DNA of 64,000 bases from an uncultured Candidatus Saccharibacteria bacterium (GTDB lineage: Bacteria; Patescibacteriota; Minisyncoccia; Phycocordibacterales; CAYGLL01), in assembly GCA_964350935.1 (NCBI GenBank), contig CAYGLL010000004.1, positions 9,267-73,266 on the forward strand, read 5' to 3'. The translations under genes and the position numbers were made by a program. Below the pieces are notes generated by a model. It was not told the DNA's origin. It made no database searches and worked only from the letters and a program-made list of their open reading frames with translations. Positions 16,469 to 26,964 of this stretch are shown here, piece after piece. Positions within the stretch are counted from its first letter, which is position 1; each line of letters opens with the position of its first letter.

Positions 16469-16525
16469 ACCGACAACCGCTTGCTTTCGATGGCGAGCGG
16501 TTTTTCTTTTCGCTATACTCAGTGT

Positions 16526-16759
16526 ATGGAAACACCTGATAAAAACAAGAAAGAAGATATTAGGCAGCTGAATCTCGTTTCACTTGCGCTTGAACTTGGA
16601 TTTTCGATTGCAATCCCTATTGTCGGTCTTGCGCTTTTGGGGCGTTTTGCTGATCGATATTTCAATACGTCGCCTGTGCTGCTGCTGGTCGGCATTATAC
16701 TCTCGATGTTTGTTTCAGTGGCGCTCATCTACCGGAAAGTTCGTGATGTGCTAAAATAG
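16526..16759 (+). CDS. atpI: AtpZ/AtpI-like small membrane protein preceding atpB
   Basis: two TM helices, immediately upstream of atpB; ATG chosen internal to TTG-initiated ORF. Confidence 0.45.
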   Translation: METPDKNKKEDIRQLNLVSLALELGFSIAIPIVGLALLGRFADRYFNTSPVLLLVGIILSMFVSVALIYRKVRDVLK

Positions 16760-16765
16760 CGGCCA

Positions 16766-17530
16766 ATGGAAGAACATGCAGCCGTTCACGTCTCCATAAC
16801 CCCAGAGCATCTCACCACTTTTTTTGGTTTGCCGATTACTAACACACTCTTAACCGCATGGCTTATTGTAATCGCTCTTTGTCTGGTTGCGTGGTTTGCC
16901 TCGAAAAAAATAAAGGAGCGTCCCGGAAAGTTTCAGAATGCATTTGAAACAGTTGTTGAGAGTCTGTTTAACTTTATGGCAACGTTTGCCGGGGATCGTG
17001 CCACAGCACGAAAGTTTTTTCCGTTTTCAATTGTCATTTTTATTTTTGTACTTGCTTCAAATTGGGTCGGCATTCTGCCTGGGGTAGGGAGTATTGGCTT
17101 CCATGAGGTTCATGAGGGTACCGAGACTTTCGTTCCGTTGTTCCGCTCAGTGTATTCAGATCTTAATATGACACTTGCTCTCGCGTTAATTGTGGTGACG
17201 GTTGTTCATGTTGTCGGTATTGCGACTTTGGGAATTGGAAAGCATGCCGGAAAATTTTTTACCCTTCGTTCGTTCGGTGATGCATTTGCAGGTTTGCTTG
17301 AATTTATTGGCGAAGCAGCGAAGATTATTTCTTTTTCGTTCCGTCTTTTTGGTAACGTCTTTGCGGGCGAGGTGCTCCTGGTCGTCATTTCCTTTTTGGT
17401 TCCCTATATTGCACCGGTTCCGTTTTACGGACTTGAATTATTTGTCGGTTTTATCCAGGCGTTGATTTTCGCTGTCCTCGCGATGCTGTTCCTCTCCACC
17501 GCGACCCACGCGCACGCGGAAGTACATTAA
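16766..17530 (+). CDS. atpB: F0F1 ATP synthase subunit a
   Basis: conserved RLFGNVFAGEVLL (essential Arg) motif, 5 TM helices. Confidence 0.9.
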   Translation: MEEHAAVHVSITPEHLTTFFGLPITNTLLTAWLIVIALCLVAWFASKKIKERPGKFQNAFETVVESLFNFMATFAGDRATARKFFPFSIVIFIFVLASNWVGILPGVGSIGFHEVHEGTETFVPLFRSVYSDLNMTLALALIVVTVVHVVGIATLGIGKHAGKFFTLRSFGDAFAGLLEFIGEAAKIISFSFRLFGNVFAGEVLLVVISFLVPYIAPVPFYGLELFVGFIQALIFAVLAMLFLSTATHAHAEVH

Positions 17531-17532
17531 AA

Positions 17533-17568
17533 AACGCACAGGATTAGTCCTGTGCGTTCTCTCTCTGT
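17533..17568. terminator. bidirectional terminator after atpB and the convergent M16 peptidase gene
   Basis: acgcacagg-attagt-cctgtgcgt hairpin followed by tctctct. Confidence 0.6.
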
Positions 17569-17571
17569 GTG

Positions 17572-23858: not shown

Positions 23859-24782
23859 ATGAGTACGTCAAGGGTTATCAAAAAAAGAATACGCTCAACC
23901 AAGAACATTAAACAAATCACTAAAGCGATGCAGGCTGTTTCGGCTGTCAAAATGCGTAAGAGTGAGGAGGTGGCGCTTAAAGCGCGCCCGTACGCCTACG
24001 CAGCGCTCGAAATTCTTAAAAACGTAACCCAGGGGGTAGGGGAGCACGCTAGCTATTCTCCGCTTTTAGATGCGCGGGAGGTGAAGAAAACACTTCTCGT
24101 GGTGGTGACATCAGATAAAGGCCTCGCAGGGTCATTTAATACCAATGTTCTTCGGGCAGCCGAACGTTTTATTAAAAAAAGTACAGTACCTATTGAGATA
24201 ATTGCAGTGGGGAAGAAGGGAAGAGATTTTTTTGCTCGTCGCGAGAGTTTCATCTCACGAGAATTTCTAGGGATCGGTGACAGTGCCTCAATCGAAGAAA
24301 CTCAGCCAATCGCCCATGAGGTAAAAGATTCGTTTACGTCCACAACATATGATGAGGTGTATATTATTCACACCAATTTTATTTCGGCGTTGAAGCAGGA
24401 GGTTGTGCTGCGAAAACTTCTGCCATTTGATGAGAAGTCACTCGAAGAGGTTGTTAAGGGTATCAAGCCGCTTCAAGGAAAGTATGCAGGTGCCGAAGGA
24501 AAAGCTTCGTCGGCTTCGGTCGAGTATTTGTTCGAACCTTCACCGGAAAAACTTCTTCACCAGCTTCTTTCAGCTCTTCTCGATGTTGAGGTGTACCACG
24601 CTATACTCGAAGCAAATGCGTCCGAGCATTCTTCTCGTATGGTAGCCATGAAAAATGCATCGGAAAATGCGGGCGAACTGATCGATTCACTGACCATTCT
24701 TTATAATAAATCCCGCCAGGCGCAGATCACCAAAGAGTTGACGGAAATTACAGCCGGGACAGAGGCGTTAGCAGTAAATTAG
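23859..24782 (+). CDS. atpG: F0F1 ATP synthase subunit gamma
   Basis: N-terminal [28 protein letters not shown] and C-terminal [13 protein letters not shown] gamma signatures; ATG at 23859 internal to TTG ORF. Confidence 0.85.
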
Positions 24783-24795
24783 TAATTATTTTTTT

Positions 24796-26181
24796 ATGAT
24801 CTCAAACGGAAAAATTGCACAGATTATCGGGCCGGTCATTGATATCGATTTCGAAGGTGCGGTCCCCGAAATTCATTCAGCTCTTGAAGTTTCGCGAACA
24901 ATAGGCGACACGTCAGCCGTTTTGGTGCTCGAGGTTGCTCAGCATGTGGGCAACGGGCGCGTGCGTGCAATTGCCATGTCGACTTCAGACGGACTTCGTC
25001 GTGGCGATGAGGTTCGTTATCAAGGTGCTTCAATCACAGTTCCCGTGGGCAAAGAGATCCTCGGGCGAATGTTTGATGTGTTAGGTAAACCTATTGATGG
25101 TCTGGGAGATGTTAAAGGTGTCAAAGAGCACTGGCCTATTCATCGCAAAGCTCCGGAATTTAAAGACCAGTCAACGGAAGTAAAAATTTTTGAAACGGGT
25201 ATCAAAGTTATTGATCTTATCGCGCCGTTTATAAAAGGTGGAAAAGTCGGACTCTTTGGCGGTGCCGGAGTAGGGAAGACCGTGCTTCTCCAGGAGCTCA
25301 TTAGAAATGTTGCGACCGTGCATAAGGGCTATTCTGTTTTTGCTGGTGTTGGCGAACGTACACGTGAAGGAAATGATCTCTATCATGAAATGAAGGAGTC
25401 TGGCGTGCTTCCACAGACAGCGTTGGTGTTCGGACAGATGAATGAAGTTCCCGGTGCCCGTGCCCGTGTTGCACTCTCGGGTCTTACGATGGCCGAGTAT
25501 TTCCGTGATACTGAAGGGAAGGACGTTCTTTTCTTTATTGATAATATTTTCCGCTTCACGCAGGCAGGTTCTGAAGTATCTGCTCTTTTAGGTCGCATGC
25601 CGTCAGCTGCGGGTTATCAGCCGACTCTTGCAAGTGAGATGGGAGAACTTCAGGAACGTATTACTTCAACCAAAAAAGGTTCGGTTACATCAGTTCAGGC
25701 AATCTACGTGCCAGCCGACGACATCACCGATCCGGCACCGGCAACAACATTCTCTCACCTCGACTCAACAATCGTATTGGCACGTTCGCTTGCTGAGCTC
25801 GGTATTTATCCAGCCGTTGATCCCCTCGATTCTAACTCAACCGCACTCGACCCCAACATTGTTGGCGATGAGCATTATAAAGTTGCTCGTGAGGTACAGC
25901 GCGTTCTTCAACGTTACAAGGACCTCCAGGATATCATTGCCATTCTCGGCATTGAGGAACTCTCCGATGATGACAAGCTTCTCGTTTCGCGTGCACGAAA
26001 GATTCAAAAGTTCCTTTCTCAGCCATTCATGGTTGCTGAGGCATTCACTGGCCGAAAGGGAAAGTTCGTAACCCGCAAAGATACGGTCGCAGGCTTCAAG
26101 GCTATCATCGATGGGTCAATGGACGATGTTCCCGAACAAAATTTCTATATGATCGGCGGGATCACTGAAGCAAAAAAATAA
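24796..26181 (+). CDS. atpD: F0F1 ATP synthase subunit beta
   Basis: Walker [18 protein letters not shown]-like motif [12 protein letters not shown]. Confidence 0.95.
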
Positions 26182-26183
26182 CT

Positions 26184-26720
26184 ATGAAAGTTAAATCTGC
26201 ACTAAAGTGGGCAGTAGTATGGATCGCCATTTACGGCTCAGGCATTGTTGCTGCCCAAACGCTTATTGCAAAAATTTCCGATCATTCCTCGAGGTCATTA
26301 TTTGAGCACTTACTCAAGGCCGCTACTCCTCTTACTGGTTGTGAAAGCCCTGGTTGCATCTTTCTTATCCCGATTTATTTTTTTACTTTTGGATTAGTAG
26401 TATTTTCATTCTCCTACTTAGTCGATTATTTTTTTCTTCCACTCAAGGGGGAAGAAGGACAAGTCACTATTTCTCGTCGAGTTGTCGCGCGTTCTAAGTT
26501 TTTTGTTCTCTATGTTATCCCTATAGCTATATTTACCGTGTGGGCATTGAACTCAATTCAAACGCAAGAGGAAAATGCGGCAGATTTGGAGAGGTATCGC
26601 AATCGCGAGTGCCTGATGATTGCTAATGAAAATTTGAGAGACCAGTGCTATCTCGACGCGAAAATGTGTAAAGAAATTGTTAACCCGGTGCGTAAGAGTG
26701 ATTGTTTAAAATTATTATGA
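26184..26720 (+). CDS. hypothetical membrane protein inserted between atpD and atpC, Cys-rich C-terminus
   Basis: 3 predicted TM helices; C-terminal C..C....C motifs; 2-nt spacing from atpD and 4-nt from atpC imply co-transcription. Confidence 0.45.
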   Translation: MKVKSALKWAVVWIAIYGSGIVAAQTLIAKISDHSSRSLFEHLLKAATPLTGCESPGCIFLIPIYFFTFGLVVFSFSYLVDYFFLPLKGEEGQVTISRRVVARSKFFVLYVIPIAIFTVWALNSIQTQEENAADLERYRNRECLMIANENLRDQCYLDAKMCKEIVNPVRKSDCLKLL

Positions 26721-26724
26721 CCAT

Positions 26725-26964
26725 ATGAAAGTTTTTATTCATTCGCTCGATAAAACGTTGTTTGAGGGTGAGGCCTCAGTTGCCATACTTCCGGCCGAAA
26801 GTGGGGAAGTCAGTATCTTGAATAAGCACATTCCCCTTGTAACTTCATTAAAAAAGGGGACTATCAGGATTAAGGGTGCTGAAGCACAGATAAAAAATAT
26901 TTCTATTCTGAGTGGTTTTGCAGAAATAAATCCAGAGCGCATTACCGTATTGGTAAACCAATAA
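26725..26964 (+). CDS. atpC: F0F1 ATP synthase subunit epsilon (beta-sandwich domain only)
   Basis: MKVFIHSLDKTLFEGEASVAILPAESGEVSIL matches the epsilon N-domain; 79 aa lacks the C-terminal helical hairpin. Confidence 0.7.
   Translation: MKVFIHSLDKTLFEGEASVAILPAESGEVSILNKHIPLVTSLKKGTIRIKGAEAQIKNISILSGFAEINPERITVLVNQ

Follow-up and report, generated by a model that had tools for sequence, protein, structure and literature searches.

Does an atp gene cluster that is interrupted twice encode an unusual F1Fo ATP synthase, or an ordinary enzyme whose genes have taken up passengers? The question is raised by a stretch of 64,000 nucleotides (nt) of contig CAYGLL010000004.1, from an uncultured Candidatus Saccharibacteria bacterium (hereafter the window; positions are those of the window unless another locus is named). 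An earlier reading, made from the sequence alone, described an atp gene cluster that is split between atpB and atpE by an opposite-strand block containing an M16 peptidase gene and typA, and that carries, between atpD and atpC, a gene for a Cys-rich membrane protein of 178 amino acids (aa), here called X178; it took this architecture to be unusual for F1Fo. Our analysis confirmed the observation but did not support the interpretation as an unusual enzyme. The split and X178 are specific to one species' lineage and represent two recent insertions, and the locus amounts to a known system that has been rearranged and that carries a true orphan gene. The enzyme itself is probably a standard Patescibacteria (Paceibacteria-like) F1Fo that is encoded by split atp transcription units, with X178 translated by coupling and forming no part of the rotor or stator.

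Genes were assigned from a map of the open reading frames (ORFs) between 14 and 29.5 kb together with Pfam and NCBIfam scans. The atp proteins of the window were used to annotate the atp genes in all 80 fetched loci, for which gene lengths and gaps were tabulated. The best matches to the gamma subunit came from Patescibacteria genomes (Paceibacterota, Parcubacteria) at no more than 56% identity, and the species itself is not a GTDB representative. The six nearest relatives by AtpD identity stand at 94, 91, 91, 87, 85 and 81%; of the genomes with long contigs, L084 (94%) and L085 (91%) are the closest.

Insertion of X178 into the start of atpC

The spacings given for X178 in the sequence-only reading were exact: the three-pass, Cys-rich ORF is wedged between atpD and atpC with 2 nt from the atpD stop codon to its ATG and 4 nt from its own stop codon to the ATG of atpC. 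In the six nearest relatives, atpC follows atpD directly after 1-90 nt and encodes 78-84 aa, and X178 is missing. The junction in the window consists of the following features:

24796-26181 (+): atpD, F1 subunit beta (PF02874, PF00006 and PF22919 recorded for the exact protein)
26183-26192 (+): 10-nt direct repeat TATGAAAGTT, left copy; X178 now starts here, where atpC started ancestrally
26184-26720 (+): X178, orphan ORF of 178 aa, no family match
26724-26733 (+): right copy of the direct repeat TATGAAAGTT, at the present atpC start
26725-26964 (+): atpC, F1 subunit epsilon, 79 aa (PF02823, 70.7 bits, positions 1-78 of 80)

A repeat search showed that the two copies of TATGAAAGTT match perfectly over 10 nt at a spacing of 541 nt. 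The corresponding junction in L084 reads gcaaaaaaaTAA-t-ATGAAGGTT-TCT and codes for MKVS, and atpC of L085 begins with ATGAAAGTTTTT. In the window, the left junction reads gcaaaaaaaTAA-ct-ATGAAAGTT/AAATCT (X178, MKV/KS, where the slash follows the shared codons) and the right junction, 541 nt on, reads TGA-ccat-ATGAAAGTT/TTTATT (atpC, MKV/FI). The comparison with L084 and L085 indicates that X178 starts at the ancestral atpC start and that the first three codons of atpC were duplicated. By way of control, 12 pairs of an inserted ORF and its downstream gene at other loci shared 0-4 nt from the ATG. The ancestral atpC was thus interrupted behind its third codon (nucleotide 9) by a segment of approximately 531 nt.

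This insertion occurred either by target-site duplication or through a 10-nt microhomology. TATGAAAGTT has the form of the target-site duplication left by a transposable element or a miniature inverted-repeat transposable element (MITE), and microhomology-mediated insertion gives the same pattern. The repeat search found no terminal inverted repeats at the ends of the insert, and the Pfam and NCBIfam scans gave no transposase-like match for it. An origin as a MITE or as an integron cassette was rejected on the lack of terminal inverted repeats and on inspection, which revealed neither an integrase nor an attC-like structure.

X178 is a real ORF and an orphan. The sequence-only reading had allowed that it might be mis-called, and that it might lack conservation or a ribosome-binding site. 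Against a mis-call, when the 541-nt insert was shuffled 200,000 times, only 17 of the shuffled sequences had 170 or more consecutive codons without a stop (p about 1e-4). Under a codon model derived from 36 of the window's long genes, moreover, the coding score was positive in the frame of X178 alone (+0.18 per codon, with -0.27 to -0.49 in the other five frames). This score lies two standard deviations below the mean of the long genes (0.31 +/- 0.06); nearby values were obtained for the M16 gene (0.21), the gene at 15950-16468 (0.15) and other small membrane genes. The ribosome-binding site was uninformative, since a Shine-Dalgarno-like 4-mer precedes just 9 of the 51 long genes of the window. 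Across these genes such 4-mers occur at about the chance level, with none at the atp genes, and translation initiation in the window appears to be largely independent of Shine-Dalgarno sequences, many genes being coupled at spacings of 1-10 nt.

Conservation, in contrast, failed: X178 has no homolog in the databases and is absent from the relatives. A word-indexed search of 5.8 billion clusters returned the query itself only, and an exhaustive phmmer search over 1.84 billion representatives returned the query and one weak match, which we rejected as a spurious tandem-repeat protein; among about 15 billion proteins there was no homolog. No Pfam family matched (E <= 0.1), including PF03899 (AtpI) and PF09527 (AtpZ), no NCBIfam family matched, and neither scan gave a match to AtpQ or AtpR. 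As to an anti-phage or phage-derived gene, PADLOC gave no match, the best PHROG match (E = 0.035) was not significant, and no relatives were found on IMG/VR viral contigs. Neither tblastn nor blastn detected any similarity or a second copy in the window and approximately 90 fetched loci, and X178 was found neither in the six nearest relatives nor in 24 other loci of the Patescibacteria type.

The deduced protein has three hydrophobic segments, which are predicted transmembrane helices, and cysteines at positions 53, 58, 143, 155, 162 and 174; the first two form CxxxxC in loop 1 and the others form C-x11-C-x6-C-x11-C in the C-terminal tail. The positive-inside rule predicts a cytoplasmic location for the N-terminus (+3) and loop 2 (+3 net) and an outward orientation for loop 1 and the C-terminal tail. 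X178 would accordingly span the membrane three times with its N-terminus inside, its C-terminus outside and its six cysteines facing outward, where they are probably disulfide-bonded, including those of a putative twin C-x11-C helical hairpin. Twin CX9C (CHCH) helical hairpins are known from proteins of the mitochondrial intermembrane space. X178 resembles them in having two equal Cys pairs on predicted consecutive helices with a short loop between, and in that the pairs would lie in a compartment that permits disulfides; it differs in its spacing of 11 instead of 9, in its lack of sequence similarity, in its three-helix membrane anchor and in its low-confidence model, and we regard the likeness as a lead only.

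We propose that a segment of 531 nt landed after the ninth nucleotide of atpC, leaving the 10-nt direct repeat, and that its ORF was thereby fused in frame to the original ATG-AAA-GTT of atpC. Because it sits on that original start, X178 would inherit the translational coupling of atpC to atpD, and the restored atpC, which begins just behind the X178 stop codon, would now depend on that stop. Expression of X178 would thus come from riding on the atp operon. The junction illustrates a way for an orphan gene to become expressed in a tightly packed genome, namely by taking over the start and the coupling of an essential gene.

The M16-typA block between atpB and atpE

The break in the first half of the cluster, with the signals around it, comprises the following features:

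16481-16759 (+): small membrane protein of the atpZ ("ATPase gene 1") type, 92-aa ORF (PF09527, 47 bits against a cut-off of 26.6)
16766-17530 (+): atpB, Fo subunit a (PF00119, 145 bits; TIGR01131, 108.9 against 102.6 bits)
17533-17558: hairpin with an 11-bp GC-rich stem, lying between atpB and the convergent M16 gene; may terminate transcription in both directions
17572-18858 (-): M16 zinc peptidase (PF00675 and PF05193; HxxEH motif present as HVFEH)
18951-20762 (-): typA/bipA translational GTPase (TIGR01394, 812 bits against a cut-off of 757)
20752-21000 (-): orphan ORF of 82 aa upstream of typA, ending 11 nt inside typA
21046-21073 (+): promoter-like site TTGAGA-16-TGgTAAAAT, sigma-70-like with an extended -10, 70 nt upstream of atpE
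21143-21355 (+): atpE, Fo subunit c (PF00137, 66.5 bits; TIGR01260, 53.8 against 43.95)

The atp genes therefore do not form one contiguous, co-directional operon: atpB and atpE lie 3,612 nt apart, with two opposite-strand genes between them. Approximately 40 relatives with both genes have a gap of at most 174 nt there, the gap in L085 being 635 nt and containing a pseudopilin gene, so the break that the sequence-only reading described is real and unusual among the loci compared. Its wording as an insert also holds. The gene order of the window is kept in L084 and L085 at both sides of both insertions, as follows:

Upstream, shared by the window, L084 and L085: S41 peptidase, L9, L27, RNase T, atpZ, atpB
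Downstream, shared by the window, L084 and L085: atpE to atpC, M23 peptidase, GltX, MurG, FtsW, MraY and onward

Since synteny with these sister genomes resumes at both sides of the break between atpB and atpE, the M16-typA block is an insertion and not the end of a large inversion. All relatives lack an M16 peptidase at this position. In the database of 5.8 billion clusters, the closest relatives of the M16 peptidase are only 36-37% identical, and the copy in L086 does not adjoin typA. The spacer in L085 holds a gene for a T2SSG-type pseudopilin of 134 aa on the plus strand, which differs from the cargo in the window; the presence of a different gene in the same spacer indicates that this spacer has been hit more than once in the genus.

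The hairpin behind atpB has a folding free energy of -17.8 kcal/mol (plus strand, z = -5.5) or -22 kcal/mol (minus strand, z = -7.2). On the plus strand it is preceded by A5 and followed by a T-poor sequence, and the T-run is on the minus strand, which makes the hairpin at least as good a terminator for the M16 gene as for atpB. Of the earlier statement that atpB ends in a terminator, the hairpin itself was borne out, and it would serve the M16 gene at least equally. In front of atpE, a consensus scan found 10 of 12 matches plus the TG in the site at 21046-21073, and the extended -10 sequence is present as claimed; we regard it as a putative promoter. A second promoter-like site, TTGTCA-16-TAATAT (21011-20984), lies back to back with it and points toward typA.

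On this evidence, a 3.6-kb opposite-strand block consisting of the M16 gene, typA and the leader of typA would have landed in the atpB-atpE spacer. The atpZ and atpB genes would now be transcribed as a unit of their own, with its end at the shared hairpin, and atpEFHAGD-X178-atpC would be transcribed from a promoter in the typA-atpE spacer, probably the site at 21046-21073. Split atp clusters are known: cyanobacteria and chloroplasts have two clusters, and alpha-proteobacteria have separate F1 and Fo operons. As in those, Fo subunit a would be transcribed apart in the window and the enzyme is presumably assembled from both transcripts; unlike those, the split here is an insertion of unrelated genes in a single species, and the point between atpB and atpE is not a classical one.

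The start of typA is itself duplicated. Its first 10 codons are present twice, 238 nt apart, and the second copy opens the 82-aa ORF. The direct repeat spans 40 nt with 78% identity (20726-20765 and 20964-21003), all codon differences within the 10 duplicated codons are synonymous, and the divergence is about that between this genome and sister genera. The duplication could be a scar of the rearrangement, what is left of a second typA gene or an insertion by start capture; the 82-aa ORF opens with the first codons of its downstream gene in the same way that X178 opens with those of atpC. The typA leader (20763-20970, 208 nt) folded better than all 200 shuffles (z = -3.0). A perfect 14-nt inverted repeat (20725-20738 and 20776-20789) pairs typA codons 9-13 with the 5' untranslated region and would place the typA start codon inside a loop of 37 nt, a structure that may serve the translational control of typA. 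Neither the typA leader nor the region after atpC matched any Rfam family.

X178, and possibly the 82-aa ORF, might exemplify a more general route by which new genes enter the compact genomes of Patescibacteria, for which we use the term start-codon capture. A foreign or new ORF would insert a few codons into an essential gene, duplicate the first codons of that gene, take its start and hand translation on to it. Two cases of start duplication (atpC and typA) lie within 6 kb of the window. As a general route, start-codon capture is speculative and we consider it unlikely. Elsewhere in the window, two adjacent plus-strand ORFs, at 60693-61037 (114 aa) and 61071-61490 (139 aa), lie 33 nt apart and both open with ATGAAAACA; the pair may be a third start duplication or may reflect chance, MK starts being common.

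Short epsilon and delta subunits

Every gene named in the sequence-only reading was confirmed in position and identity by the ORF map and the Pfam and NCBIfam scans. The remaining atp genes of the cluster are as follows:

21377-21883 (+): atpF, Fo subunit b (PF00430, 64 bits; TIGR01144, 71.7 against 65.5)
21893-22264 (+): atpH, subunit delta, 123 aa (PF00213, OSCP, 51.7 bits, profile positions 52-172 of 172)
22282-23820 (+): atpA, F1 subunit alpha (orthologs at 540-790 bits in all relatives; Pfam ATP-synt_ab on the L085 ortholog)
23859-24782 (+): atpG, F1 subunit gamma (PF00231, 308 bits; TIGR01146, 300 against 194)

The cluster thus encodes the full core set of eight (a, c, b, delta, alpha, gamma, beta and epsilon) and the AtpZ-like protein. 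Subunits a, c, b, gamma and epsilon exceed the NCBIfam TIGR cut-offs, epsilon by a small margin (TIGR01216, 68.6 against 67.25 bits, positions 3-79 of 130), and alpha and beta were identified through orthologs and precomputed Pfam domains. The atpH product passed Pfam OSCP, although it remained under the TIGR01145 cut-off (36.7 against 57.5). The longest ORF of atpG begins at the TTG at 23841. The start of the atpZ-like ORF is more likely the ATG at 16526, which gives 77 aa and is the start annotated in an independent assembly; in L004, L005, L007 and L085, an ortholog precedes atpB. With the models of the alternate F1Fo (N-ATPase), subunits a, b, c and gamma of the window scored 38-90 bits against cut-offs of 131-302.

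Compared with the canonical atpIBEFHAGDC cluster of Escherichia coli, the window has the same eight genes in the same relative order, with a small membrane gene before atpB. It differs in being broken by two opposite-strand genes between atpB and atpE and by the orphan between atpD and atpC. At the protein level, the epsilon subunit lacks the C-terminal helical domain of the canonical enzyme, and delta is shorter at its N-terminus, by approximately 48 residues, than the E. coli and Bacillus PS3 subunits.

The sequence-only reading treated the "truncated" epsilon and the short delta as oddities of this locus, and our comparison showed both to be the norm of the clade (a short epsilon in 24 of 24 loci and a delta of approximately 120-131 aa). 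The length of epsilon is bimodal. It was 73-93 aa in all 24 Patescibacteria-type loci, nearly all of which are so labelled, and 134-161 aa in 36 of 37 other bacterial loci (Chloroflexota, Verrucomicrobiota and so on), the exception being an over-extended ORF call of 228 aa. The window epsilon, which aligns with residues 5-79 of a solved epsilon of 138 aa, consists of the beta-sandwich only and has no C-terminal two-helix domain, and the same was found in all 24 short-epsilon loci. An epsilon of 87 aa in PDB entries 8YH8 and 9JC1 was considered as a natural short form and set aside, as it appears to be an engineered construct: 9JC1 contains a delta-alpha fusion chain and is cited only in a paper on an engineered ATP synthase.

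The ORF between atpF and atpA, the delta candidate, encodes 120-131 aa in the short-epsilon loci, save two (82 and 143 aa). All 10 candidates that were tested passed Pfam OSCP; nine of them align from approximately profile position 50-68 to the end, and that of L085 aligns from position 138. In the relatives of the window, delta has 117-131 aa. The window delta aligns with residues 73-175 of the E. coli delta and does not have the N-terminal helical bundle (about 105 residues in E. coli) of a full-length delta/OSCP. The delta profile of the clade is offset by +48 residues relative to the delta subunits of E. coli and Bacillus PS3, that is, shortened at the N-terminus. Since epsilon and delta are short throughout the clade, these are phylum-level traits and not consequences of the X178 insertion. 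Our literature searches found no paper on the lengths of epsilon or delta in Patescibacteria.

In E. coli, Bacillus PS3 and Chloroflexus, auto-inhibition of the enzyme resides in the C-terminal helices of epsilon (PMC10049701, PMC12002316). As Patescibacteria lack these helices throughout, the F1Fo of this phylum may be without this brake on ATP hydrolysis, and a brake-free enzyme would fit a pump-like role.

The F1Fo of Chloroflexus aurantiacus (PDB 9ITJ; PMC12002316) offers a comparison for delta, being likewise shortened at the N-terminus of this subunit relative to E. coli and Bacillus PS3. The shortened N-domain of the Chloroflexus delta consists of four helices, dimerizes and supports two peripheral stalks (PMC12002316). 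The Patescibacteria delta profile matched the 157-aa Chloroflexus delta (E = 3e-17), with profile positions 24-126 aligned to chain positions 52-154, so the Patescibacteria subunit is shorter still by approximately 28 residues. Chloroflexus differs in keeping the full-length inhibitory C-terminal domain of epsilon (PMC12002316), which Patescibacteria lack. Especially in view of the two-stalk Chloroflexus enzyme, it may be worth following up structurally that the whole phylum has lost the inhibitory domain of epsilon and approximately 48 N-terminal residues of delta.

Passenger genes at atp junctions and the status of X178

At loci of other Patescibacteria, inserts were found at the atpB/atpE, atpG/atpD and atpD/atpC junctions, as follows (positions are those of the respective locus):

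L016, 12795-13227, between atpD and atpC: HicA toxin gene (52 bits) with a HicB-like partner
L088, 449-691, before atpD: MazE antitoxin gene
L085, 5832-6236, between atpB and atpE: pseudopilin gene
L013, 10891-11619 and 13101-13316: orphan membrane ORFs
L021, 10897-11220 and 12721-12996: orphan membrane ORFs
L047, 10986-11213: orphan membrane ORF
L020: deoxyribosyltransferase-like ORF as the insert

The orphan membrane ORFs of L013, L021 and L047 encode 71-115 aa. One inserted orphan small membrane ORF, of 71 aa, has seven cysteines. An all-against-all comparison found no family shared among the inserted ORFs, and X178 was unrelated to them as well. Gaps of at least 200 nt at the atpG-atpD and atpD-atpC junctions were present in 12 of 48 junctions in short-epsilon loci, compared with 4 of 74 in the others. 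The junctions of Patescibacteria atp operons appear to tolerate insertions, and selfish or orphan genes appear to accumulate there. Because these junctions repeatedly gather toxin-antitoxin genes and orphans, extra genes in Patescibacteria atp operons should not be taken for new subunits without evidence of conservation.

The best reading of X178 is that of an operon hitchhiker which is not an F1Fo subunit; most likely it would act in the envelope or at the cell surface or, as a newcomer, have hardly any function. That it is not an F1Fo component is suggested by its absence from relatives with the same short epsilon and delta, by the predicted orientation of its Cys-bearing loop 1 and tail away from F1, and by the unrelated cargo at the same junctions elsewhere. 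Were X178 instead a newly recruited accessory subunit, assembly factor or regulator, for example a membrane partner of Fo that makes up for the lost C-terminal domain of epsilon or for the short delta, the spacings of 2 and 4 nt within the F1 block would be readily explained, as they imply coupled, near-stoichiometric translation; X178 is moreover a membrane protein, like the Fo partners, and known atp operons carry small accessory membrane genes, of which the AtpZ-like PF09527 gene is one example here. Such a recruitment is nevertheless very improbable in our view. Relatives with equally short epsilon and delta manage without X178, which is thus not needed to compensate, and the co-occurrence with a short epsilon for which the sequence-only reading had proposed to look was negative. 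The toxin-antitoxin genes and unrelated orphans at the same junctions point to permissive sites and not to functional recruitment, and the predicted Cys-rich domains would face away from F1. X178 also matches neither AtpI, AtpZ nor any other family. AtpI/UncI, AtpZ (PF09527) and AtpQ/AtpR of the N-ATPase are, like X178, small membrane proteins encoded in atp operons; X178 differs from them in having no sequence similarity, in lying in the F1 half of the cluster and in occurring in no other genome searched. If X178 were on its way to recruitment, the locus would provide a rare snapshot of a membrane protein joining an ATP synthase operon.

A possible but doubtful alternative is that X178 is a non-functional or near-neutral insert in the start of atpC, the frame of which stays open through recency or because ribosomes are relayed through it to atpC. 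This would agree with the strict orphan status of X178, which lacks a homolog at any distance, with its absence from genomes as close as 94% AtpD identity and with its coding score of two standard deviations under that of the long genes; nor can purifying selection be shown, since the four assemblies are 100% identical. T-rich DNA, in addition, readily encodes segments that resemble transmembrane helices. A neutral insert fits less well with the rarity of such a long stop-free run in the shuffles and with a coding score that is positive in one frame only and that matches those of bona fide membrane or poorly conserved genes of the window. The symmetrical C-x11-C-x6-C-x11-C arrangement, with all cysteines on the predicted outer face, argues against it too. 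That the layout is an artefact of assembly or gene calling, such as a chimeric contig or a spurious ORF, is exceedingly unlikely. X178 lacks homologs and the window comes from a metagenome-assembled genome, yet three other contigs, from different samples and different assemblers, carry atpD-X178-atpC at 100% identity, a further contig from an independent assembly carries atpE, typA, the M16 gene, atpB and atpZ in this layout, and X178 exactly fills a gap that measures merely 1-90 nt in the relatives. The identical layout of independently assembled contigs thus shows that it did not arise in assembly.

Several points weigh against a hitchhiker that has no part in the enzyme. In an essential operon, spacings of 2 and 4 nt would look like those of a recruited subunit, and translation of X178 is now probably required for the synthesis of epsilon. 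The regular Cys spacing and the clean three-helix design suggest an evolved protein with some function. The topology that places the cysteines away from F1 is derived from the positive-inside rule only, and the single-sequence AlphaFold model, which is all-helical, is of low confidence (predicted local distance difference test score of 63.5, predicted template modelling score of 0.33), for which reason it was not used for fold searches. The relatives inspected that hold both atpD and atpC number approximately 30, a limited sample. For the biology of the ATP synthase, the locus as we read it means little: the enzyme looks like that of any member of the Patescibacteria, and its traits are either shared by the whole clade or restricted to one species.

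A noncoding stretch downstream of atpC (26988-27063) has counterparts in L084 (4876-4951) and L085 (12027-12107), to which it is 87% and 76% identical, respectively, compared with 66-74% in the neighboring coding DNA. It holds the sole perfect DnaA box (TTATCCACA) of the 64-kb window, beside a GTCGC...GCGAC hairpin. We considered this element as oriC and rejected it, as the whole window has this one perfect box and no cluster. Finally, the G+C content falls to 0.39-0.40 at 48000-52000 and 58000-60000, compared with about 0.45 elsewhere in the window. The first of these dips contains several short ORFs, one of which (49569-49844) is helix-turn-helix-like on inspection, and both dips could be mobile or foreign DNA.

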